DNA of 64,000 nucleotides, taken from positions 3,365 to 67,364 of the forward strand of contig CAYZGQ010000001.1 of assembly GCA_964478135.1 (NCBI GenBank), written 5' to 3'. The stretch is from an uncultured Candidatus Saccharibacteria bacterium (GTDB lineage Bacteria > Patescibacteriota > UBA1384 > GWA2-35-9 > CAYZGQ01). Under the pieces are notes generated by a model, which saw only the letters and a program-made list of their open reading frames with translations, did no database searches and was not told the origin of the DNA. The translations under genes were made by a program, and so were the position numbers. Below, piece after piece: positions 8,884-62,521 of this stretch (position 1 is the first letter of the stretch; each line of letters starts with the position of its first letter).

Positions 8884-8927
8884 ATTTGTCTTCACTTCCA
8901 GTTGATTTAGTGACATACTGATCAATT

Positions 8928-19461: not shown

Positions 19462-19483
19462 GTCCTTAAATTAAAGACAAGCG

Positions 19484-21381: not shown

Positions 21382-21411
21382 TCGCCTCACTTGCTCCAAG
21401 GTTTTGATTGA

Positions 21412-23517
<2,106 letters not shown>

Positions 23518-30400: not shown

Positions 30401-32896
30401 CAGACAAATACTCGATTGGGTCTCGGGACAAGTTCGCCACTTTTTCCGATTCATGTTGTTAGATCGGGCGGTGGCGGGACGTTGAATTTTGACACTTACG
30501 CCGGTTCTGGACTGGGCAACAGCGCCATTCAAGGTCGGCGGGCGGCCGGAACTTTGGCCAGCCCGACAGCCACTCTGTCGGATATGACTCTGTTCGATCT
30601 GCTTGGGTCTGGCTACGACGGTTCAGCTTTCACCGGACAGATCGCTTCGATACGCATGCAAGCCAATCAGAATTTTAGCCCGACCAGTCAGGGCACCAGG
30701 ATTGTCTTTTTGACCACGGCCAATGATTCGACGACCGCGACTGAACGGCTGCGGATCAAACACAATGGCGATGTGGCAATCGGCAACGGCTCGACCGATC
30801 AGATATTATTTGGTTCGACCGGCTCGGCGGTCTTCAACGAACAGGGCAATGATGCCGATTTTCGGGTCGAGGGCGACACCGACGCCAATCTATTGTTCAC
30901 CGACGCTTCGGCCGATGTCTTGGGTGTCGGCACCGCGACCTTCGAAGCCAACACCCGCAAGATGGAGGTGAGATACACCGATACCGCGACCTCCGGAGGC
31001 ACCTTTTCAACGATTAGATTGCTTTCGGACATCAATGCTCCTTCTAACTCCACGGCATCCCATTTTGGTCTAGGAACGACTTTAAGAACCGCGAGCGGCA
31101 ACGCTTCCAACTACACCGACTCCACGACAGGTATTAAGGCGATGAACTTTGTCGTCCAGCACCGAGGCACAGGCACGGTTACTAGAATGACAGGCTTGGG
31201 CGGCAATGTCACCAACAGCTCAAGCGGTACGATTACGACTGCCGAGAGCATCGTGGCTGGGGTTGACCTGACCTCAACCGGTCCGATTACTACTTGGAAC
31301 GCCCTGCGGGTCTTCGCGCCCTCTATCACTGGCTCTGGGGTGCTGACTAACGCTCGCGGGCTTTACATCAGTAACATCACAGGGGCCTCCACGCAGAATC
31401 TAGCTATCCTGACAGAAGGGGGCGGAGTAGTCTTTAATGAAAACGGCACGGACAGCGATTTCCGGGTCGAGGGCGACACCGATGCCAATCTATTGTTCAC
31501 CGACGCTTCGGCTGATCGGGTTGGTATAGGGACAAACACCCCTTCGCTCAAACTTCACGTGGTGGACAACTCTTCAACTTCGGCTATTTTCCAGCGCAAC
31601 AGCACTGCCACCGGTTCGAGTGTTGGCTCAACGGTTTTTTTGGATAATTTGGACACCACGACCAACAATGGAGCTCGTTTGATTTTTAGAACCAACGATA
31701 CTGGCGGCGCAACCAGGCAAGCGGCTGGAATAGGCTCGCTCGTAACCGCCCGGGGTGCTAGCAGTGTGACTGGCGATCTGGTATTCCTGACCAACAACAA
31801 CTCAACCGGCGTTTCCGAGGTTGCTCGGTTAACCGGAGCGGGCGCGCTTGGCATTGGTGAGTCGCCGGCGGCCAATATGAAGCTTGATGTCGCTGGCCGG
31901 GTTCAGATTAATCTGGCCGGAACCCAAACCTCGGTTGCCTTGTGCGGTAGTCACCCGGCTGGCGGCGGGGCCTCGGTTTCCGATGTCGAGATTGTTGACT
32001 GCACCGGCACGCCGGCGGCTGACTATGCCGAGATCTATCCGGTTTCAAACGATGTTGAATACACTGATTTAGTGGCTATCGGACCGGATTCGGTTAAAAC
32101 CACCGATCAAAACTCGATTCAAAGGCTAGTCAAAGCTACGATCGCCAATCAAGCCAACACTTTAGGAGTCGTTGTTGACAACTACGGCGATTTCTCCTCG
32201 GTCGGTCACAACATTAAAGGTTCTGATAATCCCAAACCGGTCGCGCTTTCAGGCCGGGTGAGAGTGAAAGTTTCCGGCCAGTCGGGCGCGATAGCGCCCG
32301 GCGATTATCTGACCGCCTCGTCCAAACCCGGTCGGGCGATGAAGGCGACCTCAAGCGCCAAGATAGTTGGAGTGGCTTTGGGATCATTTAGCGGCGACGA
32401 GGGGACGGTAATGATGTTTGTCAGCAATTTCTGGTATAATCCGTCTTCGGGCGAGAGTATTCAGGGTACCCAAACTGCATCCTACCAGGCGCTCGAAGTT
32501 GCCGGCCTTTTGCGAACGAATCTTTTGGAGGTTGCCGGGCCAGCCGAGTTCAAAGGTAGTTTAGTTGTCTGGGGTGAAACAACCTTTAAGGCACCGGTTG
32601 TGGTTCAAAAGACGCTGACTGCTAAAGAAAAGATCGTGTCCAAAGGTGACCTTGAGCTCAAGGGCAATCTTGTTCTAAACCCCGACATTAAAGGGTCAGC
32701 CTTGCCAGTGACTAAGGGCGCGACCAGCCTTGAGGTCGTGTTTAGCAAGCCCCAAGCTGACACAAGCTACTTGGCTTTCGTCACGCCATCCCAGCCGATC
32801 GGTTTTGGCGTTACCAAACAATCTGACAAAATGATCGTTACCTTTGAGGCCGAGGCGCCGGAAGGATTAATCCTGGATTGGCTGATAGTCAGATGA
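27446..32896 (+). CDS. giant (1816 aa) membrane protein: two N-terminal excisionase-type HTH modules, one TM helix, long S/T/G-rich repetitive extracytoplasmic region
   Basis: Two tandem roughly 45-aa units (LAQAGQLFGYSAGHMNYLARSGKIIALKLGGQWYTT and LAQAAKQYGYSAGHLNLLAREGKLEAVKLGRNWYTT) match the HTH_17/excisionase pattern. A TM helix follows (FKLGLITLIVSGLAFGL). There are near-identical internal DNA repeats. The start codon is TTG as given by the ORF track, with no ATG and no SD in frame upstream, so the start is uncertain. Confidence 0.7.
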   Translation: MIPLAQAGQLFGYSAGHMNYLARSGKIIALKLGGQWYTTRAAVSAYQAGQPQPENPTGFMSLAQAAKQYGYSAGHLNLLAREGKLEAVKLGRNWYTTERAIDQYRQGVREIELVPDSPDPALQISQPENINVKVRPVASYQGFGITETDDDAPGPTGGFRLKSVMVSRGFKLGLITLIVSGLAFGLGRLVQGWRTGELNGLGPSGIAAYLFGGELAQGDRLGSGFLGSITRERAQSDTPGVRPEASPSPDTVVNNTTVNNYNQTVNNDNRQVTNISTTKTAKDIVGELSDPQVSDDITINSSKAGSFSPSGNTTALTVKQSSASPSETPIVKIQNASGANLVTVDFEGNLGLAGGSRLEIGGQQIGIANLADGSSIASLSGSQTLTNKTLSAGVIYQGSAISPSYGGTGLTSAPSNGQLLIGNGSGYTLAALTAGTAINVTNGSGSITIANSGVTSLSAGTGIAVSGSSGAVTLTNSGVTALTGTTNQVSLSGSTGSITISTPQNIHTGASPTFSRLNLSEASNQLVLQSNSVTGSLTWTPVTSNKTITLPNLTGTAFLIDGGQTISSAVWNASAIGPSYGGTGQTTLAKGDILYGSATDIWSRLAVGSIGYVLQVSLDGVPEWATISSLSVGNADTLDSLDSADFLRATASDTFEGVNSRTLTIQSDLSSGARTVDLLTISQANDPTNNFTTGNLLTIAQLDTGSSADALELNQTGSGKAINIVSGELATAGNIVQTGATTLSTGTGAVSLGGDTTIATGKNLTLASGTGTFSQIFSNTTGTGANWNITNSGSSGTNTVGGIGLVLAGTANTTGSNVINAINFSNVPPATNNSYYALNVGTGFTDIVRYNGAQLISGSGVIQSAALSGNYTGVTGVGILSTGTWNADTIIFAKGGTGLTATPSNGQLLIGNGSGYTLAGLTGTTNQINVASGAGSITLSTPQNIHTAASPTFAGLTLSDLTPGSLVFAGAGGVISQDNAKFFWDQTNTRLGLGTSSPLFPIHVVRSGGGGTLNFDTYAGSGLGNSAIQGRRAAGTLASPTATLSDMTLFDLLGSGYDGSAFTGQIASIRMQANQNFSPTSQGTRIVFLTTANDSTTATERLRIKHNGDVAIGNGSTDQILFGSTGSAVFNEQGNDADFRVEGDTDANLLFTDASADVLGVGTATFEANTRKMEVRYTDTATSGGTFSTIRLLSDINAPSNSTASHFGLGTTLRTASGNASNYTDSTTGIKAMNFVVQHRGTGTVTRMTGLGGNVTNSSSGTITTAESIVAGVDLTSTGPITTWNALRVFAPSITGSGVLTNARGLYISNITGASTQNLAILTEGGGVVFNENGTDSDFRVEGDTDANLLFTDASADRVGIGTNTPSLKLHVVDNSSTSAIFQRNSTATGSSVGSTVFLDNLDTTTNNGARLIFRTNDTGGATRQAAGIGSLVTARGASSVTGDLVFLTNNNSTGVSEVARLTGAGALGIGESPAANMKLDVAGRVQINLAGTQTSVALCGSHPAGGGASVSDVEIVDCTGTPAADYAEIYPVSNDVEYTDLVAIGPDSVKTTDQNSIQRLVKATIANQANTLGVVVDNYGDFSSVGHNIKGSDNPKPVALSGRVRVKVSGQSGAIAPGDYLTASSKPGRAMKATSSAKIVGVALGSFSGDEGTVMMFVSNFWYNPSSGESIQGTQTASYQALEVAGLLRTNLLEVAGPAEFKGSLVVWGETTFKAPVVVQKTLTAKEKIVSKGDLELKGNLVLNPDIKGSALPVTKGATSLEVVFSKPQADTSYLAFVTPSQPIGFGVTKQSDKMIVTFEAEAPEGLILDWLIVR

Positions 32897-34597: not shown

Positions 34598-35275
34598 CTA
34601 GCTGGCTGGCGAGGGGCTTGGGCTAGCGGCTGATTGGCCAGTTTGACGGGCGAACACAATGTAACGTTTGACGAGCGTGCCCGGAGGCCAAGAGGTTTGG
34701 AGAGTTATGGTTTTGTCTTTCGGATCTTTGGGCGTTGGGTCTAGAACCGAGAAGTCGTCAGAGGCGACCACCTTCTTGCCAAAGACCTCGTATTGGTAGG
34801 CGACATTTTTGTAATAGACGATGAACCGATCGCCTTTGTCGAGTTTGTCGATACTTTTGAAGATTTCTTTAAGTTCTGGTTTACCCGGGAAGTTTTTAAA
34901 GTAGCTCGAGTGACCGAAGATGTACATATTTCCCAGTTGGTCCGGTTTCTGGCTACCTTTTAGATGTGCGACACCGAGCTGGGAGGTGATTTTTTGATAG
35001 ACCGGTTCGTTAGCCCCGTCAACATCCGCGATAATTGGAACCCGGATGCTGATTTTTTCGATCTCAAGACCAAATTCTTTGATCTCGACTGGTTCTGGCA
35101 GGGAACTTTGATTAAGCCCTGAAGGAGAGGCAGAGGGTTGAACGATTGATACGTTCAAGCCTGACTTTACCAAAGCAAGCGTTCCGGCAACAACCATAGC
35201 GCTTGCTAGTCCAATACCAAGAATAACTAGCTTTTTTTGAGTAGTCACTTGTGGCAAGACAGATTGTGGGTTCAC
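34598..35275 (-). CDS. sortase-fold protein (class E-like) with Ser at the catalytic Cys position
   Basis: N-terminal TM anchor. Catalytic His context (NMYIFGHSSYF). TLQTSWPPGTLVKRYIVFA aligns with the sortase TLxTC...R active-site strand, but it is encoded as acc-tct-tgg (Ser), which I verified by reverse-complementing 34650-34700. The GTG start overlaps the TGA stop of the upstream LPKTG gene. Confidence 0.65.
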   Translation of the reverse strand: MNPQSVLPQVTTQKKLVILGIGLASAMVVAGTLALVKSGLNVSIVQPSASPSGLNQSSLPEPVEIKEFGLEIEKISIRVPIIADVDGANEPVYQKITSQLGVAHLKGSQKPDQLGNMYIFGHSSYFKNFPGKPELKEIFKSIDKLDKGDRFIVYYKNVAYQYEVFGKKVVASDDFSVLDPTPKDPKDKTITLQTSWPPGTLVKRYIVFARQTGQSAASPSPSPAS

Positions 35276-38200
35276 GCGAGCCGGCGTCGAAGGGTTACCG
35301 CGACCGATCCAGCGGCAAGAGCGGCCAGTCCGATCAAGGCCAGTAGGTTGAGCGCGAGCGTGTTGGCCCCGGTTTTCGGCAGCTCAACAACCTGCGCCGA
35401 AACCTGATCGGTGTTAATTGACTCGTTGCCAGTTGTATCGAGGGAGCGCAGGGTGTAGTAGTATGTCCCTTTGGCGGTCAGGCTGTCATTATAACTCGTG
35501 TCTGCCTTGACGGTCGTCTTAATTTTATCGCCTAGCTTTCCAGATTCACTCGAGCGGTAAATGTTAATCTTGTCAAAGTCAGAGTCGGTTGGATTTTTCC
35601 AAGTTAAACTGATCTTACCAGTGCCGGCAGTCGCTTTGACTTCGCTTGGAGCGGCCGGCGGGGCGCTGTCAGCGTTGGCCGCCAGGCCAAAGACGGTTAA
35701 GTGGGAAACCAAACAACTAACTTCGTTTTTAGTGGTGTCAACGGTGCAGTTTTCCTTAGACAGTGAACCATCGGTCTCGTTGAATGAGACGATCTGGATA
35801 TCAGCTTCTTTGACCCCGGCCGGAATATCGGATTCTTTATAGGGGAAGGTGACGGTCAAGGGACTGTTGGGAGAAGTAATGTTAGAACCATTAGAGTCGA
35901 TCGCCGTGATATTATAAGCCTTTCCAAAGACAGAGGCACCTTCTTGGGCAGGCATTTCTGCTGTGGCGCCAACATTAAGCGTGACATTAGCGTCATCATT
36001 GTTTTTATCGAGTGCATCTGCGGGCACTTGGATGTTCATACCATCGCTTAAGGAGATTGCCGTAGCCGAACCCGAATTGCCAGTTCTTGAAGCGTCAGCT
36101 GGCAAAACGTTGCTTTGGGTAGTCAAACTAAAATCTTGGGTGAGATTGGTCGTTTGACCCTTGGTGTTAACCAGTTTTTCACCTGGTAGGATTATGACAT
36201 CTTTTTGGTTATCAGCATCTTTGGCGACATCAAGGTGCCAGACAGTATCTTTGGTGGCATTCATTGAGTATTTGCCATTGGAATCAGTCCGGACTTGGTT
36301 GACAGCGCCGTCGTCGGAATAGGCGCTGACAAGGGCATTGTTGACTGTTTGAGCGCTGGAATCATTAACTGTGCCTTCAAACTTAAAGTCGGCTTTGCGT
36401 AACTTAAAGTCAACCCCAGTTTTAGTTTCTTGATTGCCCACGCTAACGATTTGTTCAGCCGGTGGTAGCCAGCCATTTTTATTCAGCACTTCGGGCGCCA
36501 TAAAAACTCGGATGTTTTGGGTTTCACTGGAAGTGACATCGATTGAGTAGCTACCATTCGTATCAGTTTGGCCACTGAATTCGAAGAAGTCAGGCACAGG
36601 ACCTTTAGTTGCGTTGCGGTTATCGTCGTCTAGGCCGTTGTCCACTTTAACTTTCGCTCCCACGACCGCGTTACCATCGGGATCGGTGACTTTACCTTGG
36701 ATTTTGCTGTCAAGGGCTTTGAGTGTTACTTTAACCTCTGCCGTTTGGCCGGCCGTCAGGCTGACTTTGTCTTTGGGGGGTACCATGGCAAAGCCTGAAC
36801 CTGGTTCGATAAAGACACCGACACGGTAGGGGCTTTGCCCGGCAACAACACTAATGTTGTTAACAGAGGCGGCTCCGCCATGACCGGCGAAATCACCCAT
36901 GACATTGACACCTTTGTCAGAAATAGCAAAGGCGTGGGCAAAGACGCCGGAAATGGCACTGCCGTCAGATTTCACTAACTTAACGGCAATGTTAGCATCG
37001 GTAGGAACCAGCTTGATATCAATTGATTTGACCTCGTTTTTAGCAAGTTTGACCTTGCTAAATCCTTCGGGCATAAAGCCGTTCATTGGCATCATTGGGT
37101 TTAATGTGTACTCATTGTCACCGGGAACTTTGATATTAGCGCTCCCACGCTGGATTGGTTTACCCAGAAAGCCGATCGTATCACTATTAACTTCCATAAA
37201 GCCAAAGCTGTCAGAGACGACAGCTTTGGTGTCAGAACGGGTAATCCTGGCCTTGATGGTGGCATCGGCGTTAAGTGCCTCGAAGGTAGCTGTTCCACCG
37301 GCTTCAACGAACTGTGGCCCGCCTTTGATCACCTTGGAACTGCCAGCCTGTTGCTCTTGATCCTTTTGACCACCTTCAGGTCCAAAGTTCTCTGACATCA
37401 CCATCACGCCGTATTTGCCCGTGCCGACCACAGGGATCGTGCCGGTTGCTTCGGTCCCAGTCAGCTTAAGAATAGTAAAGCCGAATTCACCGCCTCCACC
37501 GACGCCCATCTTAAAGACATTGGCATTCATGTCGGCGGAGCCGTTTTTAACCACGACTTTGATTGCCTTTTCTTTTTTTACCAGAGTCAGGATACCGAGG
37601 TTTTTGGTTTCGCCGGCTTTAACCGCGATTGGCTCAATGACAGGCGCTGCGAACTGGGCGGCGTTGGGATTTTGGAAGTTCGGTGGCGAAAAGATGTCGA
37701 AATTATAGCTTTTTCCTCCGGCTACTTTCACGTTGAAGTTGACCGAGGAGGCACCCGGGGTAATCTGGAGGGGCGCGCCAAAGCCAAAGTCATTACCGGC
37801 CCGGATACCAAGACCGGTGCCTTGAGCTAGGGCGGATCCATCAGGCGTGGTAATTGTACCGGTAACCGCGGCGTCGACTTTTACGAAGTTATTAATGTTA
37901 ACGGTGACTGTTTCCACTGAATCGTCGTCTTTAAAGCTAGCCTGAATTGGCGGACCGCTCATCACGAAACTGCCGGCCCCATCGCTCGGGGCATGGATAT
38001 TCCATCTACCACCCGAGAGTTTGACGCTGTAGTTGCCGCTCCCGTCGGTTTTAGTTTGGGCAAAACCACCCGCTTCTTTAAAGAAGTTTAAGCTAGTAGT
38101 GATTACAGCTTCACCGGTCGCGGTGGTTGCTTTACCGGTTAAAGTTTTGGTCGCAGATTTAAATTTAATGGTTTTGCCAGTCAATTGGCTGCCGGTGTAG

Positions 38201-38598
38201 GTACCAAGATCTGTGAACGGGGGAGAGATTAATCCAGTGGTTGAGCCGTCAAACGGTGGGAAAAGATCGGCCACGAGCTTGTCGCCGCTTTGGGTGTTAT
38301 TAGCGAAGTCTTGGATAGTTGCCAGGCCGTTAGCGTCTGAATTGCTAAATAAGGAATATTTAAAATCAATCGGATGGACGTTAACTCCGGCGTTTTTGAC
38401 CGGCGCGCCATCGGCATCCTGGATGGTAATTACAATAATGGTTTTAGCCGTGGGTGGTGGTTGGGCGAGTGAGGCGCCAGAGTAGGCGAGGACTAGGCCC
38501 GCGATAGTGAAGACGCTTGTAAGGCCGCGCCAGTACAGGCGGAAAGCACCCGCCTGGGTCGTTCCTGATTGTAACATTATCCCTCCTTTTGAGCTCAA
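35272..38598 (-). CDS. LPKTG-anchored giant surface protein (1108 aa) with Ig-like/carboxypeptidase-regulatory-like domains and a C-terminal FN3
   Basis: N-terminal signal/TM. A C-terminal sorting signal (LPKTG, hydrophobic stretch, then RRRLA). FN3 signature (TYYYTLRSLDTTGNES). Strong SD (aaaaggaggg) before the ATG. Confidence 0.8.
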   Translation of the reverse strand: MSSKGGIMLQSGTTQAGAFRLYWRGLTSVFTIAGLVLAYSGASLAQPPPTAKTIIVITIQDADGAPVKNAGVNVHPIDFKYSLFSNSDANGLATIQDFANNTQSGDKLVADLFPPFDGSTTGLISPPFTDLGTYTGSQLTGKTIKFKSATKTLTGKATTATGEAVITTSLNFFKEAGGFAQTKTDGSGNYSVKLSGGRWNIHAPSDGAGSFVMSGPPIQASFKDDDSVETVTVNINNFVKVDAAVTGTITTPDGSALAQGTGLGIRAGNDFGFGAPLQITPGASSVNFNVKVAGGKSYNFDIFSPPNFQNPNAAQFAAPVIEPIAVKAGETKNLGILTLVKKEKAIKVVVKNGSADMNANVFKMGVGGGGEFGFTILKLTGTEATGTIPVVGTGKYGVMVMSENFGPEGGQKDQEQQAGSSKVIKGGPQFVEAGGTATFEALNADATIKARITRSDTKAVVSDSFGFMEVNSDTIGFLGKPIQRGSANIKVPGDNEYTLNPMMPMNGFMPEGFSKVKLAKNEVKSIDIKLVPTDANIAVKLVKSDGSAISGVFAHAFAISDKGVNVMGDFAGHGGAASVNNISVVAGQSPYRVGVFIEPGSGFAMVPPKDKVSLTAGQTAEVKVTLKALDSKIQGKVTDPDGNAVVGAKVKVDNGLDDDNRNATKGPVPDFFEFSGQTDTNGSYSIDVTSSETQNIRVFMAPEVLNKNGWLPPAEQIVSVGNQETKTGVDFKLRKADFKFEGTVNDSSAQTVNNALVSAYSDDGAVNQVRTDSNGKYSMNATKDTVWHLDVAKDADNQKDVIILPGEKLVNTKGQTTNLTQDFSLTTQSNVLPADASRTGNSGSATAISLSDGMNIQVPADALDKNNDDANVTLNVGATAEMPAQEGASVFGKAYNITAIDSNGSNITSPNSPLTVTFPYKESDIPAGVKEADIQIVSFNETDGSLSKENCTVDTTKNEVSCLVSHLTVFGLAANADSAPPAAPSEVKATAGTGKISLTWKNPTDSDFDKINIYRSSESGKLGDKIKTTVKADTSYNDSLTAKGTYYYTLRSLDTTGNESINTDQVSAQVVELPKTGANTLALNLLALIGLAALAAGSVAVTLRRRLA

Positions 38599-41575: not shown

Positions 41576-44500
41576 GTGCTGGGTGTTTTAGCCCTGCTCG
41601 GTCTGGTTTTAGTCAGTCCTTCGGCCGTCCAGGCCGGTGCAATCACCGGTTTGTCGGTTACAGTCAGTGACACGAGCGTCCAAGGGACGGCTGACTGGAC
41701 AATTGCCCTGACTCCAGAACAGTCAGTCCCAGCCAAGTCAAATGGCGGTCGGATTCACATGTGTGTCTATGGACCAGGCTCGATGAGTTTTCGGGATGGT
41801 TCTGTCGCGCTCGATTCGTCGGCTAGCACGAGCGGTTTGTCAATCTATGAACGGTTGGGAAATTGTATCACCCTTCAGTCAAACAGCGAGATCGCAGGAG
41901 GAACGGTTATCACTGCCAAACTGACAGGGGTTAGAAACCCAGACAAAGCCGGACGGTATGTTGGTCACATCTACAGCTCGACCTACGGCACCGCCCGAGA
42001 CGGCACCTCTCGCTGGGGCGGGCTCTACAATAGTTCTTTTACCATCGGCGATTTGACCAAGAACACTATTTCAGGTACGGTCACAGATGCCAATGGCGCA
42101 CCGGTCCGGTTTGCCTCCGTCTCTGTTTGGGGTAGCGGCGGCGGCGCTTGGGGCTACAGCTACACCGATCAAAATGGCCAGTACGCGATCGGCAGTCTAA
42201 CCACTGGCTCCTACAACTTTAGCGTCTACGGTCCCTACAACGAAGACGGTATCTTTTATTTTGCGCCTGATGTTTCGAGTATTTCAATTTCCGATACTTC
42301 GGCCACGACCAAAAACGCCAGCTTTTTAGCGACTCCCAAAACATTGCAAATTAAGGTTGAGGACGGCTCTGGTACAGCCATAACCGATGCCTATGTCTCG
42401 ATCTGGTCCAGAAACGGGAATGGTTGGGCTCAAACCAAAAACAACACCAACGGAGTCTACAAGATTAATGTTCCGAAAAACCGGACTTTTGGGTTTAGCG
42501 TTTATCCCCAAAATTGGCCTTCAACCTGGCAGTCATGCGGCAGTTATAACGAAGAAGTTACGACCGCCAACACCGATACGGCCGAGACTGTCAGTAAGAC
42601 GTTTAAGGTTTCCTCGCTCAACGCCACGGTCAAAGGTAAGATTGAGCGGTCTGACGATAGCACGCCCAAGCGCTGGTCAGTGAGCGTGAGTTTCCAGTCA
42701 AGCGGAGGTTGCTGGGCTTCAGCCGACTTTCCCGACGACACTGGTAATTTCAGCGCTAAAGTTGTCAGTGGCGAGACTATCACCGCGACTGGTTGGGTTT
42801 CGAGTGATCTCAACGAATCATTCCCAACGGTCAGTAACTTTTCGGTCCAAGCCAACCAAGAGCACAACCTGGGCGTAATCAAACTTAAAAAGCGTGATAA
42901 AAAGCTCGCTGTGACGGTTGTGGACAAAAATGGCGATCCGGTTAACAAGGCCAACGTCTACGCTTGGAAAACTGGCGGTTCGTATGAATATGCCAACGGC
43001 ACAACTGGCTCCGATGGCAATGCGGAACTCTTTTTGAGTCCAGGCAGCTGGAATGTTTCGGCCGGGCCAGAGTACCGCTGGAATGGCTCAAACAACGAAT
43101 ATGACTATGTCTCCAACTGGAAGTCTCAATTGATCAGCTTTTCCGAGTCAGACACGACTAAAACGATCAAGTTTATCTTCCAAAAGGTTACCTCAACGAT
43201 TAATGTCACCGTGACCGATGAGGCTGGGAGCGTCCTTAACCTATCGGGTAGTTTGTCGGCCAACGATGGTTCGCAAGAATGGTCAAATATCTGGTCCCAG
43301 CTCAATAGTGGCAAAGGCAAGCTTAGGGTTCCCCGAGGGACCTGGAGTGTTAACGCCAGTATTTGGGATGAGACCTATAGCTCACCAAATCCGGTTGACA
43401 TCACGATCGGTGATAATGAGACCAAAGAGATCAAGCCCAAGGCCTTGATCAATGATTCGACCATTTCCGGCAAAATCTACACAGAAGATGAAGATGGTAA
43501 CCGGACCCTGCTTAAAAACACTTGGCTTAGCATCTATGCTAACAAAAAAAATTCCTACTCTTCTTGGCGGTCAGCCTCGGTCAACCAAGAAGAAGGAACC
43601 TATTCGATCAAAGTTTCCTCGGGTGACTGGAGGCTCGGTTACTGGTTTTATAACAACAATTATATGTCAGGATACGGGAACGAAGTTGATGTATCGGTTA
43701 AATCAGGTGAAACTAAGACCCAAGATATTATTCTGCGCAAAGCTAACTACACCATCTCGGTCAAGGCGCTCGATCCAGACGGCAAGGCGCTGATGGGGGC
43801 TTGGATCACGGCTGACACGCGCAATCCTAAAGAGCGGACCGAAGCTGGTACTTGGTACTCAACCGGTACCTCAACCAATAATCAGGGAGAGGGGACGATT
43901 CAAGTGTCAGCCAACACTTACTGGATTAGTGGTTCGATGTGGTCAGGTTATATCAGTCCAGAGCGCCAAGAGGTTAAGGTCAATAAAGACAATCCAACTG
44001 CCAGTGTCACTCTCCAGTTCGGTCGGTCTGATGCGACTATATCTGGCACAGTCAAGCTCGATGACAAAGGGACTAAGTCGTTTGTTAATGCGGTCAGCGA
44101 GAAAGGCCGCTATGCCGAGACTAATTCAAGTAACGAAGGCCATTACATCCTCAACGTCTCGAAAGACGACACTTGGGTCGTCAAGGCAGTTAAAAAGGAT
44201 GGCGCAACTTTGTATCGATCAGACAAGAATCGAGTTGATCTCACTGGTAAGACCACGGGCATAGTCAATCTCGATTTGGTAAAAGAAACAATCAAGTTGC
44301 CGGAGGGGACGACCAGCACCTTTAATGCCAGCCAGTCAACTACCGTTAAGATTAAAAATGGCAATGTTGACGAAGTGATCATCACTGTTCCGACTGGCAC
44401 CCTGTCGAGCGATAATGAACAGATAACTGTAACGGCCGATGTGACCGAAGAGGTCACCGACACTTCAACTAGCGAGCCTGTTTTCGACTACGGTTATGAC

Positions 44501-45193
44501 ATCAACGCCAACGGTAGCCAATCCGGCACAATCAGCCAGTTGAAGGATAACGTGACCGTGACCGTAAACTATTCGGCCAACGAGCAGGCGATCCAAGATG
44601 AGGGAACAGAAGAGGACCTAGTGGTAGCCCGTTTCAACAACGAGAAAGGTGAATGGGAGCAACTCCAAGGTTGCGCTACAAACAAGGATGACAACACTAT
44701 TACCTGTCAAAATAATCACTTCACCAAGTTTGCGGTTGTCGCTTCAACCGACATCACCCCACCTTCTGCTCCAGGTAGCCAGAAGGCGATTGCTTCGAAC
44801 GCTAAGATTTCTTTAAGCTGGAGCAAGCCAAGCCAGGCCGACTTTGCCGGGGTTAACATCTATCGGTCAACCGAGAGTGGCAAGCTGGGTGATAAGATTT
44901 ACGGCAAAAATACCTCCACCAGTCACGACGATACGGTTCTGATCAACGACACGGTCTATTACTATACCCTCAAGTCAGTTGACAAAGCCGGTAACGAGTC
45001 AACCGCATCCGATCAGCTCAAAGCCAAGCCTTCAGCAACCTCGCCGGAGTCATCGGACGGTTCAACCACTGCCACGCTCTCAATTCTGCCCAAGACTGGT
45101 CAACCAGCCTCGCCTTTGAATTGGTTGTTGGCGATTCTGACAGTGATCAGCCTGGCCGGGGTCAGGGCATCGAGGATTGTCCGGATTAAGTGA
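41576..45193 (+). CDS. LPKTG-anchored giant surface protein (1205 aa), paralog of 35272-38598
   Basis: N-terminal signal peptide. Repeated carboxypeptidase-regulatory-like beta-sandwich motifs (SGTVTDANGAPV). C-terminal FN3 (TVYYYTLKSVDKAGNES). LPKTG, a TM segment and a basic tail (RIVRIK). The GTG start is taken from the ORF track and the exact start is uncertain. Confidence 0.8.
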   Translation: MLGVLALLGLVLVSPSAVQAGAITGLSVTVSDTSVQGTADWTIALTPEQSVPAKSNGGRIHMCVYGPGSMSFRDGSVALDSSASTSGLSIYERLGNCITLQSNSEIAGGTVITAKLTGVRNPDKAGRYVGHIYSSTYGTARDGTSRWGGLYNSSFTIGDLTKNTISGTVTDANGAPVRFASVSVWGSGGGAWGYSYTDQNGQYAIGSLTTGSYNFSVYGPYNEDGIFYFAPDVSSISISDTSATTKNASFLATPKTLQIKVEDGSGTAITDAYVSIWSRNGNGWAQTKNNTNGVYKINVPKNRTFGFSVYPQNWPSTWQSCGSYNEEVTTANTDTAETVSKTFKVSSLNATVKGKIERSDDSTPKRWSVSVSFQSSGGCWASADFPDDTGNFSAKVVSGETITATGWVSSDLNESFPTVSNFSVQANQEHNLGVIKLKKRDKKLAVTVVDKNGDPVNKANVYAWKTGGSYEYANGTTGSDGNAELFLSPGSWNVSAGPEYRWNGSNNEYDYVSNWKSQLISFSESDTTKTIKFIFQKVTSTINVTVTDEAGSVLNLSGSLSANDGSQEWSNIWSQLNSGKGKLRVPRGTWSVNASIWDETYSSPNPVDITIGDNETKEIKPKALINDSTISGKIYTEDEDGNRTLLKNTWLSIYANKKNSYSSWRSASVNQEEGTYSIKVSSGDWRLGYWFYNNNYMSGYGNEVDVSVKSGETKTQDIILRKANYTISVKALDPDGKALMGAWITADTRNPKERTEAGTWYSTGTSTNNQGEGTIQVSANTYWISGSMWSGYISPERQEVKVNKDNPTASVTLQFGRSDATISGTVKLDDKGTKSFVNAVSEKGRYAETNSSNEGHYILNVSKDDTWVVKAVKKDGATLYRSDKNRVDLTGKTTGIVNLDLVKETIKLPEGTTSTFNASQSTTVKIKNGNVDEVIITVPTGTLSSDNEQITVTADVTEEVTDTSTSEPVFDYGYDINANGSQSGTISQLKDNVTVTVNYSANEQAIQDEGTEEDLVVARFNNEKGEWEQLQGCATNKDDNTITCQNNHFTKFAVVASTDITPPSAPGSQKAIASNAKISLSWSKPSQADFAGVNIYRSTESGKLGDKIYGKNTSTSHDDTVLINDTVYYYTLKSVDKAGNESTASDQLKAKPSATSPESSDGSTTATLSILPKTGQPASPLNWLLAILTVISLAGVRASRIVRIK

Positions 45194-56251: not shown

Positions 56252-57007
56252 TTGATCCCTAATCAGATAAAAAAAGTGTCTAAGTCCAAGACAGATACTC
56301 GAGATGGTTATTATGGCCGATCGTATTATTGCCAGGCTGAACGGGGCTATCACGAAAGCCATCTTGATCGGGCGCGAGATCAAAAGGCGCTCCATCCCTT
56401 TTTTTGGTCAGTCTTAACCGAGGGAAAGTTTCAGCCAAAGACACTGCTCGATGCCGGTTGCGGTTTGGGTCTGTACGCCGATTTTGCGGCGAGCCAAGGG
56501 GTGGTTGTCACCGGTCTTGACCGTTCCAGTTTTGCCTGTCAGGAATCAAGTCAGCTACTCGGATCAAACAAGGTGGTCAGGCATGATTTGGAAAAGACAG
56601 CCATACCCTTTAGGGCCAACAGATTTGATGCGGTAGCTTGCCTGGACGTGATCGAGCACGTCAAGAGGGATCAGTATGTCCTTAATCAAATTTACCGGGT
56701 AATTAAACCTGGCGGACGAATTTTAATCACCACACCCAACGCGTCTGGCTGGTGGCATAGAATTTTTGGTCAAAGTGATTTTAGCCATGTTAATGTCCAG
56801 GATCAGCGCTACTGGCGCCAACTTTTAACCAAGACCGGCTTTATCAATATCGAGCTAACCGGCATAGCTTTATTCGATCTCTTGCCCCATAAAAGATTGA
56901 GAAAACTTTTTAAACGCCGACGGGCGCGGCCGATCCGATTATCTTGGCCACCCTTTTTGGTTTGGGCCTTAGTTATCAGAGCCTCAAAGCCGGTAGGCTG
57001 GTCTTAG
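56252..57007 (+). CDS. class I SAM-dependent methyltransferase
   Basis: Motif I LDAGCGLGLY and post-I/II motifs (VIKPGGRILITTPN). Confidence 0.75.
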   Translation: MIPNQIKKVSKSKTDTRDGYYGRSYYCQAERGYHESHLDRARDQKALHPFFWSVLTEGKFQPKTLLDAGCGLGLYADFAASQGVVVTGLDRSSFACQESSQLLGSNKVVRHDLEKTAIPFRANRFDAVACLDVIEHVKRDQYVLNQIYRVIKPGGRILITTPNASGWWHRIFGQSDFSHVNVQDQRYWRQLLTKTGFINIELTGIALFDLLPHKRLRKLFKRRRARPIRLSWPPFLVWALVIRASKPVGWS

Positions 57008-57044
57008 AGCATCTGATCGTGGTATCGTAGTATTATCACGCTTT

Positions 57045-58163
57045 TTGGGAAAAGGAGGGATCATTAAAACAGGCGGTAAAAGGATCTTAATTTTAAACTG
57101 GTACGATAAGCGTCATCCCAAATCAGGGGGGGCTGAAGTTTACCTTGAAGAGGTGGCTAAAGAGCTTAGTTTACTTGGCCATGAAGTCCATTGGTTTGCT
57201 AGTTCCTTTTCTGGTAATACTCCCCACGAGTTAGTTGAGGGTATCACAATCGAGCGTTTTCATCAGTCGTACTTAATCAATCTAGTCAGCTTGTGGCGTT
57301 TGTTCAAGGAGCGTTCCCGTTTTGATCTGGTGATTGACGCGACCAACAAATTGCCTTACCTAACCTCGATATTTTTTAGATCAAAATCCTTGCCCTTGTT
57401 TTTGCACATCAACGATCAAATTTTTACCAAAGAATTCGGCCAGATTTTTGGTCGGCTGGGCAGGTGGTTTGAACGACAGATGGTCAAAACCTACCGTCGG
57501 CTCAAGGTTGTGGCGATCTCGAAAAGCACGGCCAGCGATCTTGAAAAATTGGGATTGTCACAAGAACAAGTCGTGATCGCGGTTCCAGGTGTTAAGACCG
57601 ATCTGTACCGCCCTGGCAAAAAATCTGACTATCCTTTGATCGTGTCGGTCAACAGACTCCGCCGCTATAAAAACCTCGACATTTTGATCAAGTCTTTTAA
57701 GGCTGTTAACCGGTCAATTCCTAAAGCCCGGCTCGTGATAATGGGCAGGGGTCCAGATTATGCCCGTTTGGTTAGGTTGATTCATAAGTTCAAGCTTGAG
57801 CAATCGGTCAGACTGACTGGATTTGTGTCCGAGAGGGAAAAAATTAACTGGCTTCAAAAAGCTTGGATTCACGTCAATCCTTCAACCAAAGAAGGTTGGG
57901 GTCTTAACGTGATTGACGCGGCGGCCTGCGGCACGCCCTCGGTCGGAAGCGATGTCGCGGGTTTGAGAGATTCGATCCAAGATGGTGCTACAGGTTGGCT
58001 GGTGCCAGTTGGAGCCGAGTCTGCTTTGTCAAGAAAGCTGATTAAAGTTTTAAAAGACCATCAGCTAAGGCGGCAGATTGGTAAACGATGCCTCGGCTGG
58101 GCCAGTCAATTCAGCTGGGCGCAGACCGCTCGAATGTTCGATGAAGTCATTAGCTCTCGCTAG
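57045..58163 (+). CDS. GT4-family glycosyltransferase (GT-B fold)
   Basis: N-terminal GGAEVY and the C-terminal EGWGLNVIDAAACGTPSV(G)SD motif (the E-x7-E region). Confidence 0.8.
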   Translation: MGKGGIIKTGGKRILILNWYDKRHPKSGGAEVYLEEVAKELSLLGHEVHWFASSFSGNTPHELVEGITIERFHQSYLINLVSLWRLFKERSRFDLVIDATNKLPYLTSIFFRSKSLPLFLHINDQIFTKEFGQIFGRLGRWFERQMVKTYRRLKVVAISKSTASDLEKLGLSQEQVVIAVPGVKTDLYRPGKKSDYPLIVSVNRLRRYKNLDILIKSFKAVNRSIPKARLVIMGRGPDYARLVRLIHKFKLEQSVRLTGFVSEREKINWLQKAWIHVNPSTKEGWGLNVIDAAACGTPSVGSDVAGLRDSIQDGATGWLVPVGAESALSRKLIKVLKDHQLRRQIGKRCLGWASQFSWAQTARMFDEVISSR

Positions 58164-60174
58164 GACAGATCAATTTAAGCTGTTTTTGAGTGTCATTGTT
58201 AGTTTAGCCTTTGTGTGGCGACTGACAATCGCCCTAGCCGGGCCCTGGCGGCCGGATGAAATTGTCTATATTGACTGGCTTGGTCAGTGGTTTCGCGGTC
58301 ATTTTTTTGAGTATTTTTTTCAGATTAAACAGACCGTTTTTCCGCCCCAGTCACCGGTTTTTGGCAACCCTCCTTTAGCCATGTGGTTGATGGCGCTCGC
58401 AAGCGCCGTGTCCGAGTTTTTCGGTCAAAGCGCTTTAATCGGAGCGAGACTGGTTAACGTTTTCTTGGGTTCGCTGGCGGTTTACCTGACAGCTAGTTTA
58501 GGCAAGCGCCTGTTTAGCCATAAGGTTGGTCTTGTGGCGGCGGCAACAATGGCCGCGACTCCTTTTGTGGCGGTCAACAACGCCACAGCTTACCTTGACA
58601 CGCTTTTGGTAAGCTTGATTATCGCCAGCTGGCTCGTTCTTGAGAGTTATCGCAGATCCAATACTAGAGCGAACGCTCTAATGATTGGGGTGATTAATGG
58701 TTTAGCCTTGCTGACCAAGGCCAGCGCCTTGCCTTTTGTCCTCCTTAATCTGATTGGAGTGTACGTCTTAACTCGATCGACCGGTCTCTTTCGAGGCAGA
58801 CAGTTGAGAGTGGCTTTTTGGTCCAGCTTGATCGTACCGCTTGTTTTGTGGCCTGGCGCCAGGGATTTTGGCCATATCTACCAGATAATTAGTTACTTCT
58901 CAACAATCGGCAAAGAAGCCCTGTTTGAGAGTCTGGCTCCAACGTCTCTAATTTACTTAAACATGATGGTCAGTATCCTGCCTTTGGCTTCAGTGTTTGG
59001 ATTAGGGTTGTTTATCGTTTGGTTTATTAAGGACGGCCTGGAGAGCCGGCCAGCCTGGTGGCTAGTTCTAAATCTGGCGGCCTACTTCAGTTTTTTGATC
59101 GCCATCACTGGTCCTAGGGATAGCCATCACTTGGTGGTGATATCGCCAGCCCTGTCTATAATATCGGCCCTTGGGCTAGTCTGGATTTTCAAACGATTAA
59201 ATCAATCCGCTGTCTTGACTCTTAAAATCGTGGTCGCGCTTTCGTTTTTGGCTCCCGCCCTGTCGATTAAACCGGCCTTCGCCAGCTTGTATGTTAACAG
59301 CCTGATCACTAAGAATCAGGCAAGAGACAAGTTCGTTCTGGCCAGTGGAGGTGAGGGTCTAGTTGAGTTGGCGGCCTGGCTCAAAGAAAACGTTGGAGGG
59401 CAAGACGTGATCGCCAGCGGCTACGAAAATTTTCAGCTGGCCAAATATATTGATAATCCGATCGTGCCCTTTTTTGGTTTTGATGGACTAGATGGAGTCA
59501 GGGCTCGAGGCGCCAATTGGGTCGTGGTAACAAGCTCTATAGAGAATCGGTCCAATCAGGCGAGCTGGCGCTACTTTAGCCAGCTCGCACCGAACTTTGA
59601 AGTATCCTATCAAGGTTTGACCGTTCAAAGGGTTTATAAAATTAACTATGACGACACATTCTCGGGCGTTAATATTAAGATCGGTCACCCTGGCTTAACA
59701 TCCTGGAGAACGGGCAAGCGTTTACCCCAAGATGAAGTTATTTTTGTTCCAGAAGAAGGGGGGGTAAAGATTGACTACAGCTTCCCTGACGAAGGACCGC
59801 TTAGCTGGTTTTTCCTGGAATCAGAGGCTGTTTTTGATCTAAAGCCATACCGGGGGATCGCCCTTGATGTTTATGGGGATGGTCTTGGAATAGACACTCT
59901 AACAACCCATCGGGGTTTGCCTCGGCAGTCGCTCAAAATTGACCTAATGGGGGAAAACAGGAGAGCCAATGTTTTAAGATACAGCCTCGGTGTCGCGTGG
60001 CCGGGCTGGCGCAGGGTCTATATTCCGTTTGAGCTGTTCCAGCCGCAAGTTCTAGAACCAGATGTTACCATGCCCGGACTAAGTGATAAACTGGTGCTCA
60101 AATTTGCCCTTGATTCAAGGTCACAACAGCGGGCTAAAATCGGTTTGCGCAACATTGTTTTAGTTCCAAAGTAG
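58141..60174 (+). CDS. GT-C fold glycosyltransferase (PMT/ArnT, GT39/GT83-like) with C-terminal extracytoplasmic domain
   Basis: About 11 TM helices in the first 400 aa. The conserved loop-1 acidic motif RPDEIVY occurs right after TM1, as in PMT/ArnT enzymes. The start at the internal Met MKSLALA overlaps the preceding gene by 23 nt. Confidence 0.6.
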   Translation: MKSLALARTDQFKLFLSVIVSLAFVWRLTIALAGPWRPDEIVYIDWLGQWFRGHFFEYFFQIKQTVFPPQSPVFGNPPLAMWLMALASAVSEFFGQSALIGARLVNVFLGSLAVYLTASLGKRLFSHKVGLVAAATMAATPFVAVNNATAYLDTLLVSLIIASWLVLESYRRSNTRANALMIGVINGLALLTKASALPFVLLNLIGVYVLTRSTGLFRGRQLRVAFWSSLIVPLVLWPGARDFGHIYQIISYFSTIGKEALFESLAPTSLIYLNMMVSILPLASVFGLGLFIVWFIKDGLESRPAWWLVLNLAAYFSFLIAITGPRDSHHLVVISPALSIISALGLVWIFKRLNQSAVLTLKIVVALSFLAPALSIKPAFASLYVNSLITKNQARDKFVLASGGEGLVELAAWLKENVGGQDVIASGYENFQLAKYIDNPIVPFFGFDGLDGVRARGANWVVVTSSIENRSNQASWRYFSQLAPNFEVSYQGLTVQRVYKINYDDTFSGVNIKIGHPGLTSWRTGKRLPQDEVIFVPEEGGVKIDYSFPDEGPLSWFFLESEAVFDLKPYRGIALDVYGDGLGIDTLTTHRGLPRQSLKIDLMGENRRANVLRYSLGVAWPGWRRVYIPFELFQPQVLEPDVTMPGLSDKLVLKFALDSRSQQRAKIGLRNIVLVPK

Positions 60175-60218
60175 GGGATTGTTTGCTCCGGGTTTTGTCA
60201 AGTGACTAGAGCTGGCCC

Positions 60219-61343
60219 ATGAGAATCGTCATAACCGATTTTGATGATCTTACTAACCCTTATGGCGGCGGTCAGGCCATTAGAACTTTTGAAATTGCCA
60301 AAAGACTGGCTCTCAAACACGACCTAACGGTTGTTACTTTTGGTCACTGGGGTAAAAAACCAAAGGTTGTCGAGGCGGTTCGATTTGTTCCGATTGGTTT
60401 TGGTCGTTTTCCGATTAACCACCTAAGTTATTTAGCCCAATTACCCAAAACCGTTTCAAAAATTCCCCACGACATTGTGCTGGAGCAGTGGACTCCGCCA
60501 ATTGGCATGAGTCTGCCGCCTTTGCCCTTAGTCACCAAGGCACCGGTGGTCGCTTCTTTGTCTTGGTTTTTTAGCCAATGGATGAGCCGGAAATATCACC
60601 TGCCTTTTGCCAAGTTAACGTTTGGGCTGGCTAAGTCGTATCGTTTCGCGATTGGGATGACCGAGTTTGACGCGGCTAGATTTCGCAAACTGAATCCTCA
60701 TGCCAAGGTCTGGACGATTCCCTACGCGGCTGACAGTCCCGATGTTGTCAGAGGTAATTTTGGTATGACACAATTGAGTATTGAGCCAGACTTCGAATAC
60801 ATTTTGTTTTTAGGCCGGCTTGATATTCATCAAAAAGGTTTGGACCTATTGATTAAAATTTTTGTTGACAACAGAGAAAAATTACCTGTCCTGATCGTGG
60901 CGGGGGAGGGCCGAGAGCGAAAACGTCTCTTAAGAATGATCGTAAGGAAAGGTTTGTCCGACCGAGTTATTCTGCTCGGTCGTGTTGACGGAGAGCGTAA
61001 ACAACTCCTTATTGCTAAGGCTAGGGCGCTAGCTGTTCCTTCTCGCTATGAAACTTTTGGCCAGGTGGTGATTCAAGCTTTTGCGCAAAGAACGCCGGTC
61101 GTTATGTTTAACTTGCCCCAATTTCGTAAAATAGTCCCTCAAGGATATCCACTGTTTGCCCCTGCCTTTGATTTGGCTCGATTTGGTCAGTTGCTAAGAC
61201 GTGTTTGTCAAGACGTTGATTTTAGGTCAAAAATAGTCACTCAATATCAATTGGCTCGACAATTTATAGATTGGGATACTATTGCCGATTATCACCAAAA
61301 AGTGTTTGATCAAGTCGTTTTGAAAAATCAGCGCCGGGAATAA
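60219..61343 (+). CDS. glycosyltransferase, GT-B (GT4-like)
   Basis: FLGRLDxxKG and YETFGQVVIQAFA C-terminal motifs. Confidence 0.75.
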   Translation: MRIVITDFDDLTNPYGGGQAIRTFEIAKRLALKHDLTVVTFGHWGKKPKVVEAVRFVPIGFGRFPINHLSYLAQLPKTVSKIPHDIVLEQWTPPIGMSLPPLPLVTKAPVVASLSWFFSQWMSRKYHLPFAKLTFGLAKSYRFAIGMTEFDAARFRKLNPHAKVWTIPYAADSPDVVRGNFGMTQLSIEPDFEYILFLGRLDIHQKGLDLLIKIFVDNREKLPVLIVAGEGRERKRLLRMIVRKGLSDRVILLGRVDGERKQLLIAKARALAVPSRYETFGQVVIQAFAQRTPVVMFNLPQFRKIVPQGYPLFAPAFDLARFGQLLRRVCQDVDFRSKIVTQYQLARQFIDWDTIADYHQKVFDQVVLKNQRRE

Positions 61344-61369
61344 GACTAGTTTGTGGTACAATACAAAAA

Positions 61370-62521
61370 ATGAGGCGGGTGACTATTTTTCGGTTCGGCC
61401 CGATGAGAAATTTAGTAGTCTTGGTTTTTGGGCTGGTCATTTTTAGCCTGGCAGGCACGGGGGCGGCTTTGGGTCAAACTCGCGATCTATGCCTAGCCGA
61501 TCCCTACTGCACCGATAAAACTCGAGAAGAGGTTGGCATTTTTCAAAAACTAGATCCCTCCGGACAAACAGCCGAGGCGGTTAGTTTGATTAAGCTAGTG
61601 GTTGAGTCGGCTGTTGGTCCGATCGCGATCACTGCTGCCGCCAGTACCTTTGCCGGTGGTATTGGTTTTGTCTTACAAATACCCTTGATACCAGCTTGGA
61701 CCAGACGTAGGGCCAAACCCTGGGGGAGTGTTCTCGATAGAGTTTCCGGAGCGACCCTGTCGGCTGTTTTGGTCCGCTTGTTTGAAACAGAATTTGGCCG
61801 ACTTGTGGCTAGCGCCCTATCCGACAGCCAAGGGCGATTTAGTTTTCAGTTAACTGAACCGGGACGTTTTTTTGTCTTGGCCAGCGCCAGCGGTTATGAG
61901 CTGACTAGAACTCAAGATTTTATTGTTTCAGACCCTCGCCAGGGCAAGCCTGGTTCAGACTGGAAGATTTATCTTAACCCAATTTCGACCGCCCGAAGCT
62001 TAAAACAAGATCACTTAATTTGGTTAAGACCGGTCAGCGTGTTCCTAACTCTTATCAGGCGACCGTTACTCGTTCTTGGCAGTTTGGTTACTTTAATGGC
62101 TCTGGTGACAAGCTTTGATCTAAAGGTTTTGATGTTTGCCTTTTTTTACTTGATTTTGTGGTTGCTCGAGTACTGGCAATCAAGACCACCCAAGCCCTAT
62201 GGCCAGCTGATTGATCGGGCAAGCGGCCGGCCTGTTACTTTGGCTCTTATTCGGGCCTACCGAGTTCGGTCCAACTCTCGTTCGTATCTTGCCCAAACGA
62301 CTGTTTCAAACAATCAGGGTCAGTATCGCTTACTGGTAGCGCCAGGAAAGTACTACTTTGAGATTGAGCGCCCAGGCTATTTTAAGTTAAGGATCGGTCC
62401 GAAGCGGTTATTCGGTCTAAAAACTCAACCTAATTATCGATTTAAACTCCAACCGGTGACTCAACCGCTTGGTCAAAAATCGTGGTCAGCGACAGTTGAG
62501 CGGACTGGAGTGTCGGTATGA
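61370..62521 (+). CDS. membrane protein with two carboxypeptidase-regulatory-like (CarbopepD_reg) beta-sandwich modules
   Basis: Signal/TM at the N-terminus. Two modules with the DSQGRFSF and NNQGQYRL motifs separated by 3-4 TM helices. Confidence 0.45.
   Translation: MRRVTIFRFGPMRNLVVLVFGLVIFSLAGTGAALGQTRDLCLADPYCTDKTREEVGIFQKLDPSGQTAEAVSLIKLVVESAVGPIAITAAASTFAGGIGFVLQIPLIPAWTRRRAKPWGSVLDRVSGATLSAVLVRLFETEFGRLVASALSDSQGRFSFQLTEPGRFFVLASASGYELTRTQDFIVSDPRQGKPGSDWKIYLNPISTARSLKQDHLIWLRPVSVFLTLIRRPLLVLGSLVTLMALVTSFDLKVLMFAFFYLILWLLEYWQSRPPKPYGQLIDRASGRPVTLALIRAYRVRSNSRSYLAQTTVSNNQGQYRLLVAPGKYYFEIERPGYFKLRIGPKRLFGLKTQPNYRFKLQPVTQPLGQKSWSATVERTGVSV

Follow-up and report, generated by a model that had tools for sequence, protein, structure and literature searches.

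Glycosylation outside the cytoplasm has two hallmarks, an enzyme of the GT-C fold and a lipid-linked donor (PMC11127046). In the synthesis of phosphatidylinositol mannosides, the cytoplasmic GT-B enzymes PimA and PimB precede the periplasmic GT-C enzyme PimE (PMC12041525). In the Gtr system, a GT-C is accompanied by a glycosyltransferase (GT) of family GT2 (GtrB) and a flippase (GtrA), the cytoplasmic enzyme being genetically coupled to the extracytoplasmic one (PMC11127046). A comparable arrangement is found in a 64-kb stretch of DNA from an uncultured Candidatus Saccharibacteria bacterium (contig CAYZGQ010000001.1, positions 3,365 to 67,364 of the forward strand), here called the window. Its GT-C gene stands between genes for two glycosyltransferases of family GT4, named GT4a and GT4b. 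The favoured reading, held with about even confidence and based on sequence families, gene order and a structural model, is that the three enzymes form a module assembling a cell-envelope glycan. The likeness to PimA/PimB'/PimE lies in the succession of two cytoplasmic GT4s and an extracytoplasmic GT-C, all working on a single lipid-anchored glycan (PMC12041525). With the Gtr system the locus shares the genetic coupling across the membrane; it differs in that the coupled enzyme is a GT4 (GT-B) and not a GT2, that a second GT4 belongs to the conserved set and that no GtrA-like flippase or GT2 occurs within the window. Literature searches for this module architecture or for GT-C enzymes in Patescibacteria found none.

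The GT4a, GT-C and GT4b genes in related loci

A preliminary description of the window had assigned five co-directional genes, separated by short gaps or overlapping, to one glycosylation cluster encoding a methyltransferase, a GT4, a GT-C, a second GT4 and a membrane protein with CarboxypepD_reg domains. All five open reading frames (ORFs) were recovered on the + strand at the coordinates first given for them, and Pfam agrees with all the domain types named. The locus also stands as a glycosylation gene set, with GT4 (GT-B) enzymes beside an extracytoplasmic GT-C that keeps its acidic loop-1 motif. The unity of the five genes is not sustained, since only GT4a, GT-C and GT4b recur together in related loci. 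Co-directionality and short gaps say little about the five, because 41 of the 44 window genes lie on the + strand and the median gap is 41 nt. The cluster is bordered by ClpP on one side and by a cofactor-independent phosphoglycerate mutase on the other, the latter only 7 nt downstream of the fifth gene. Promoter and terminator scans of the cluster remained at chance level and were uninformative.

GT4a (57045-58163, +) is a GT-B glycosyltransferase of 372 amino acids (aa), matched by Pfam Glycos_transf_1 and Glyco_transf_4 (E 4e-40), in which no transmembrane (TM) segment is predicted. Among solved structures BshA comes nearest (E 8e-23), though the match is generic. GT4b (60219-61343, +) is a second cytoplasmic GT4 of 374 aa (Glycos_transf_1, E 3e-23); its similarity to PDB entries is weak, to Tll1590 and to PimA, the latter a further likeness to phosphatidylinositol mannoside synthesis. 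Weak similarity of PglJ and PglH type is also seen among the GT4s, and NCBIfam gives only sub-threshold generic matches for the cluster genes and for the GT2s of related loci. A defence-system reading, raised by ‘GT4-conflict’ Pfam matches, is ruled out, those matches being weaker than the general GT4 models.

Nineteen related loci came from searching genome and metagenome collections, in part with an alignment of the seven closer GT-C sequences as query. Seventeen of them hold sequence upstream of GT-C, the contigs of L016 and L017 beginning inside the gene. In all 17, a GT4a orthologue is either directly upstream of GT-C or fused to its N-terminus. The separate form, immediately upstream (250-310 bits), occurs in Berkelbacteria (L004), in another Patescibacterium (L005, L010 and L011) and in metagenomic loci (L012-L015 and L019). 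The fused form, with GT4a and GT-C in one polypeptide of 885-1052 aa, occurs in Acidimicrobiaceae (L006, L009 and L020-L022), in an Actinomycetes metagenome-assembled genome (L007), in an Acidobacterium (L008) and in L018, a metagenomic close relative of the Acidobacterium locus. Pfam finds both GT4 and PMT_2 in the fusion proteins P0012 and P0029. As the GT4 part precedes TM1 in the fusions, with the loop carrying the acidic pair on the opposite side of the membrane, GT4a is taken to be cytoplasmic. Wherever the flanking sequence is long enough, a GT4b orthologue (87-242 bits) is found no more than about 6 kb from GT-C, in some loci with divergent transcription. Collectively, gene order suggests that GT4a is an obligate partner of GT-C and GT4b a conserved companion of the pair, and by the same comparison the three genes are a conserved module across at least three phyla.

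Relatives surround the module with further genes. The Berkelbacterial locus L004 adds two GT2s (one, of 240 aa, weakly similar to AglJ, ArnC and PpgS), a polysaccharide deacetylase and a radical-SAM fusion; L005 adds a DegT aminotransferase and a second PMT_2 GT-C, while L013 and L014 have a UDP-GlcNAc 2-epimerase directly upstream of GT4a. Patescibacterial loci also add a third GT-C, TMEM260-like with TPR repeats, and radical-SAM enzymes. The Acidobacterium locus L008 contains a GT87-like GT-C and a large GT2+GT4 enzyme. A Polysacc_synt_3 (Wzx-like) protein is present in L006, L008 and L009, and Acidobacterial and Actinobacterial loci have another large membrane protein as well. In L004, the ORF holding the GT4a orthologue (7776-9926, +) is 716 aa long and includes a radical SAM/SPASM domain; in L012, a separate B12-binding radical SAM gene lies inside the cluster.

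The GT-C subfamily and its described counterparts

The GT-C ORF extends over 58078-60174 (+; PMT_2, E 1.4e-10). Its start is most likely the ATG at 58141, as in the public gene call P0001 for the identical protein, and this preferred form (58141-60174, +) has 677 aa and overlaps GT4a by 23 nt. The protein clears the Pfam threshold for PMT_2 (PF13231) with 42.0 bits against 26.1, over residues 97-258 of the 698-aa ORF. It has no match to PF02366, PMT_4TMC or MIR (Pfam, E<=0.01), to the STT3 models or to the Emb/Aft families (Arabinose_trans/GT53, GT85 and others), and its sequence contains no WWDYG-type motif. No NCBIfam family matches, the curated ArnT models included, and no arn genes adjoin. 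A sequence search against the PDB returned nothing; a profile of the family gave only marginal matches to solved structures, namely PIG-M (E 8e-4) and ArnT (5ezm, E 0.06).

A word-seeded homologue search found two matches, and an exhaustive HMMER scan was needed to find the family: among 1.84 billion representatives, 38 relatives have E<=1e-10 and 23 have E<=1e-30, followed by a long tail of generic PMT_2-type matches. Judged on sequence, GT-C belongs to a distinct, uncharacterised subfamily that is rare in current databases. Conservation across 37 members defines a signature in the first extracytoplasmic loop (58246-58386, +), W-x-x-D39-E40-I-V-Y ... W50-F51 ... Y58 ... Q61 ... P68-P69-x-S71 ... 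F74-x-N76-P77-P78, or in extended form W-x-x-D-E-I-V-Y ... W-F ... Y ... F-Q-x-x-H-x-x-Y-P-P-x-S-P-x-F-x-N-P-P. The RPDEIVY motif of the preliminary description is indeed present, at residues 37-43 of the 677-aa form and directly after TM1. It contains the putative catalytic pair D39/E40 (58255-58260, +); residues 39 (D/E) and 40 (E/D) are both acidic in 36 of the 37 members. Other conserved positions are R103 and D/E153 (36/37 each), K193 and W237 (35/37 each) and R241 (33/37).

A single-sequence AlphaFold model of GT-C was discarded (predicted local distance difference test, pLDDT, 38), and an alignment-based model from 51 sequences reached a pLDDT of 91 and a predicted template modelling score (pTM) of 0.91. 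The latter model shows a GT-C_A core that crosses the membrane many times and, behind it, a C-terminal region outside the cytoplasm, and it places the acidic pair on the extracytoplasmic side. The extracytoplasmic C-domain of ∼250 aa announced earlier thus exists, although in the model it measures about 290 aa and has two parts. The first is an alpha/beta subdomain according to the model secondary structure (about residues 386-505; 59296-59655, +); the second is a C-terminal beta-sandwich (about residues 506-677; 59656-60171, +) that resembles the carbohydrate-binding module (CBM) CBM11 and CIA30. In Foldseek searches with the model, EmbC is the top match, with ArnT and STT3 among the first and the protein O-mannosyltransferases (PMTs) lower. 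By fold comparison, the core is about equally similar to ALG12, Pmt4, AglB, ArnT and STT3, and similarity to STT3, PglB and AglB is confined to the shared GT-C core. In the family, the extracytoplasmic C-terminus is variable: the CBM-like domain is doubled in P0005 and P0006, and in P0009 and P0013 a C-terminal Polysacc_deac_1/DUF2334 domain is fused to GT-C on the extracytoplasmic side.

The enzyme had been described as of PMT/ArnT type. Fold matches place it in the GT-C_A superfamily and not in the PMT or ArnT family, in keeping with the missing PF02366 and ArnT model matches. Likeness to ArnT and other PMT_2 proteins (PF13231, COG1807) comprises the GT-C_A fold, with ArnT among the top fold matches, the PMT_2 threshold reached, the acidic loop-1 residues and conserved basic residues that possibly bind lipid phosphate; relatives carry the Joint Genome Institute (JGI) label ‘ArnT-like glycosyltransferase’. 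Unlike ArnT, the window GT-C has its own loop-1 signature and a 290-aa C-terminal region with a CBM11-like domain, the profile match to ArnT stays at E 0.06, and its partner is a GT4 and not ArnC (GT2). Moreover, the hosts of the subfamily include organisms without lipid A (Patescibacteria and Actinobacteria). With the GT39 PMTs (fungal Pmt1/2/4 and actinobacterial Pmt) it shares the loop-1 DE motif, which is not exclusive to PMTs; it differs from them by its CBM-like C-terminus, by having no PF02366, PMT_4TMC or MIR match and by its pairing with GT4s instead of a polyprenyl-phosphate-mannose synthase. Mycobacterial Emb and AftD arabinosyltransferases have extracytoplasmic CBM-like domains, so that a GT-C core with such a domain, together with EmbC as top Foldseek match, brings the Emb/Aft enzymes (EmbA/B/C and AftA/B/D) close. 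Several GT-Cs in one cluster, as seen in relatives, are also found in arabinan and mannan assembly. Nevertheless, the window GT-C is much smaller than these enzymes, has another type of CBM and no sequence-family match to them, and no decaprenyl-phospho-arabinose pathway genes were seen.

A proposed envelope glycan and the competing products

According to the favoured reading, GT4a and GT4b, as soluble or peripheral GT-B enzymes, would use nucleotide sugars to build a lipid-linked saccharide at the cytoplasmic face of the membrane. Candidate products are an undecaprenyl-(di)phosphate-linked oligosaccharide or a glycolipid anchor. After translocation, GT-C at the outer face of the membrane would spend a lipid-phosphate-linked sugar, the donor type established for GT-C enzymes, by means of D39/E40 in loop 1. 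Its CBM11-like C-terminal domain may hold a carbohydrate chain, as suggested by the fold and by the domain fusions of relatives. If so, the acceptor would be a glycan (a wall-associated polysaccharide or lipoglycan) and not a naked peptide, and the evidence leans towards a surface glycan over protein. The methyltransferase may tailor a sugar in this genome. The tight coupling of GT4a and GT-C, by a 23-nt overlap here and by fusion elsewhere, argues that they act on successive intermediates of one pathway, each on its own side of the membrane. Likewise, the CBM-like fold, the deacetylase fusions and the cluster genes of relatives point to a chain containing amino sugars that is handled outside the membrane.

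Several observations weigh against an envelope-glycan module. Half of the proposed pathway is unseen, since no priming phosphoglycosyl transferase, GT2 polyprenyl-phosphate-sugar synthase or flippase occurs within the 64-kb window. A CBM-like fold is no proof of carbohydrate binding, because CIA30 has the same fold, and at 885-889 aa the Acidimicrobiial fusions seem to leave no room for a complete CBM-like domain. The window version is a stripped-down form of the clusters of relatives, and what their extra genes suggest may not transfer to it. Finally, GT4s about 35% identical to GT4a occur without a nearby GT-C, which means that membership of this GT4 subfamily does not imply such a partner. 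One such GT4, 35% identical to GT4a, is found in a 3.5-Mb genome (L023, 8001-9122), where it stands alone between nusB and genes for a hibernation factor, HPr kinase and the PTS and lacks a neighbouring GT-C. GT4a-like enzymes in the wider sense are common and occur in other contexts. A GT4a-like example labelled Bathyarchaeia sits in a cluster rich in GT2s and GT-Cs.

A protein acceptor was the proposal of the preliminary description, which let the cluster serve giant surface proteins rich in serine and threonine (S+T). Besides housekeeping genes, the window encodes one sortase, two LPKTG proteins and several giants, a content that suggests a small genome of the Patescibacteria type. Three giants are S+T-enriched as claimed (28.9, 23.1 and 22.7%; window median 12.3%); large surface-type proteins nevertheless number four in all. 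The most enriched (13204-19461, +; 2085 aa, 28.9%) has an N-terminal anchor, no sorting signal or LPXTG motif and seven Pur_ac_phosph_N/fn3 repeats. LPKTG motifs occur in two window proteins only, one of the three enriched giants (41576-45193) and a protein with 17.4% S+T (35272-38598, -).

Other features of these proteins are recorded here for their own sake. The 1816-aa giant (27446-32896, +) begins with a pair of tandem HTH_17-type (excisionase/MerR-like) repeats, followed by a single TM helix at about residues 172-195 and ∼1600 aa rich in S+T (22.7%); it is therefore membrane-anchored, and its DNA-binding-type domain presumably faces the cytoplasm. The LPKTG protein of the minority strand, 1108 aa long with CarboxypepD_reg domains, is immediately followed by the sortase gene (34598-35275, -), which overlaps it by 4 nt, and the two look like a dedicated sortase-substrate pair. 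G+C content rises to 0.55-0.57 at 14001-18000 and 30001-32000, inside the two largest giant genes, against about 0.48-0.50 elsewhere, which probably reflects the Gly/Ser/Thr-rich repeat composition of the giants.

That GT-C moves a sugar, from a lipid-phosphate donor or as an oligosaccharide built by the GT4s, to Ser/Thr of these exported giants is unlikely. The acidic DE pair of loop 1 is PMT-like, several family members, although not the window protein, reach the PMT model PF02366, and S+T makes up 23-29% of three window proteins, compared with a median of 12%. A preprint on Saccharibacteria pili calls glycosylation in Patescibacteria unexplored (PMC11623550). In three Patescibacterial relatives (L004, L013 and L015), moreover, the extended cluster abuts a giant (15071-21931, 15065-17953 and 9058-11007, respectively) whose N-terminal anchor resembles that of the 2085-aa giant of the window. 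The shared motif, R-T ... H ... R..WY..W..F....VH followed by a TM helix, covers about 70 aa with 27-29% identity. Between the window giants and those beside the clusters of relatives, phmmer found no homology, and BLAST gave the weak N-terminal match only (E 6e-4 in a tiny database). The link between giants and GT-C in the window rests on their sharing 64 kb, at distances of 11 to 37 kb and in a nearly all co-directional genome. Together with the missing PF02366, PMT_4TMC and MIR matches, this leaves the proposed service to the giants without specific support. In fold comparison Pmt4 has no clear lead over ALG12, AglB, ArnT and STT3, the C-terminal domain resembles a CBM and not a peptide-binding or TPR module, two relatives have a polysaccharide deacetylase fused to GT-C, and the window holds no polyprenyl-phosphate-mannose synthase (GT2, Ppm1/DPM1-type).

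Against this acceptor speaks also the gene actually beside the giants in L004, L013 and L015. It encodes the TMEM260-like/TPR GT-C, which is found at 13038-14924 in L004, 16344-18206 in L005, 13040-14884 in L013, 9247-11136 in L014, 6904-8841 in L015 and 16568-17938 in L012 (-) and is absent from this window. That enzyme is a better candidate for a protein O-glycosyltransferase than the window GT-C. Protein O-glycosylation stays a minority reading.

Another possibility concerns the donor. In the extracytoplasmic systems described so far, the donor is made by the cytoplasmic enzyme that is genetically coupled to the GT-C (PMC11127046). By analogy, GT4a would make a lipid-phosphate-linked donor inside, in the role of GtrB, DPM1 or ArnC, and GT-C would use it outside, with GT4b elsewhere in the pathway. 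In accordance, the coupled or fused enzyme is always GT4a, and the window lacks a GT2. The clusters of relatives do carry GT2 genes, such as the 240-aa enzyme of L004, and BshA, the best structural relative of GT4a by sequence, acts on a small soluble acceptor. To our knowledge, no GT4 enzyme charges a polyprenyl monophosphate. Such a make-and-use pair is accordingly rated as rather improbable. A variant in which the product of the GT4a::GT-C machine would, in Patescibacteria, coat the S+T-rich giants or their wall is more doubtful still.

A third alternative retains the GT4s as enzymes that would extend an undecaprenyl-diphosphate oligosaccharide and lets GT-C transfer the whole unit en bloc to peptidoglycan, another polymer or protein. 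GT4s typically act on diphosphate-linked intermediates, and the PglJ/PglH-type similarity mentioned above would fit; so would the presence of STT3, AglB and PglB among the best fold matches and the Wzx-like flippase of the Actinobacterial and Acidobacterial clusters. Nevertheless, GT-C has neither a WWDYG-type motif nor an STT3 Pfam match, the window provides no priming transferase or flippase, and fold similarity to oligosaccharyltransferases is no better than to monosaccharide transferases. En-bloc transfer thus has a low probability.

Lastly, the idea of five independent genes, adjacent merely through a compact co-directional genome, draws on the strand bias, the short gaps (7 nt even to the unrelated downstream gene), the uninformative promoter and terminator scans and the lack of conservation of the methyltransferase and CarboxypepD_reg genes as neighbours, yet it is very improbable and, as far as gene order tells, already refuted for the three-gene core by its adjacency in 17 related loci and its fusions in several.

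Flanking genes and significance

The two outer genes of the original five remain outside the module. The first encodes a class I S-adenosylmethionine-dependent methyltransferase (56252-57007, +; Pfam Methyltransf_23/11/25, E 3e-20) of 251 aa from a TTG start, or 243 aa in the public gene call, which begins at 56276. Its substrate is not assignable, NCBIfam and the PDB giving generic UbiG-like similarity only. In related loci the same slot is occupied by a class I methyltransferase that is unrelated (E only about 1e-9; L004 and L012), by the DegT aminotransferase (L005) or by the UDP-GlcNAc 2-epimerase (L013 and L014). On this comparison the methyltransferase is an accessory gene and not a conserved part of the module, probably encoding a lineage-specific tailoring enzyme.

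The last gene encodes a membrane protein of 383 aa with two CarboxypepD_reg domains (61370-62521, +; Pfam E 3e-17) and hydrophobic segments at residues 6-36, 70-102 and 222-269. A word-seeded search among 5.8 billion clusters found no homologue except the protein itself, the PDB holds no relative, and no equivalent small membrane protein adjoins the module in related loci. The sole match there is to a CarboxypepD_reg domain of a giant in L004. Thus, this protein is probably a mere, lineage-specific neighbour of the module.

For the annotation of the window, the module comprises three genes, not five, and its GT-C is neither a PMT nor an ArnT. A rare GT-C subfamily can now be recognized by sequence, from its loop-1 signature and, usually, a CBM11-like tail. 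In at least three phyla its members are always linked, as neighbours or by fusion, to one particular GT4. The GT4a::GT-C fusion is a concrete pairing of cytoplasmic and extracytoplasmic glycosyltransferases, and the forms from Actinobacteria and Acidobacteria may lend themselves to study more readily than those from Patescibacteria. If GT4a and GT-C do make and use a common donor, this would be a new route of donor synthesis for GT-C enzymes. It would also offer a first entry point to the glycosylation of the envelope in this uncultured radiation, whose envelope glycans and glycoproteins are essentially uncharacterised, although Patescibacteria depend for their living on surface contact with hosts.

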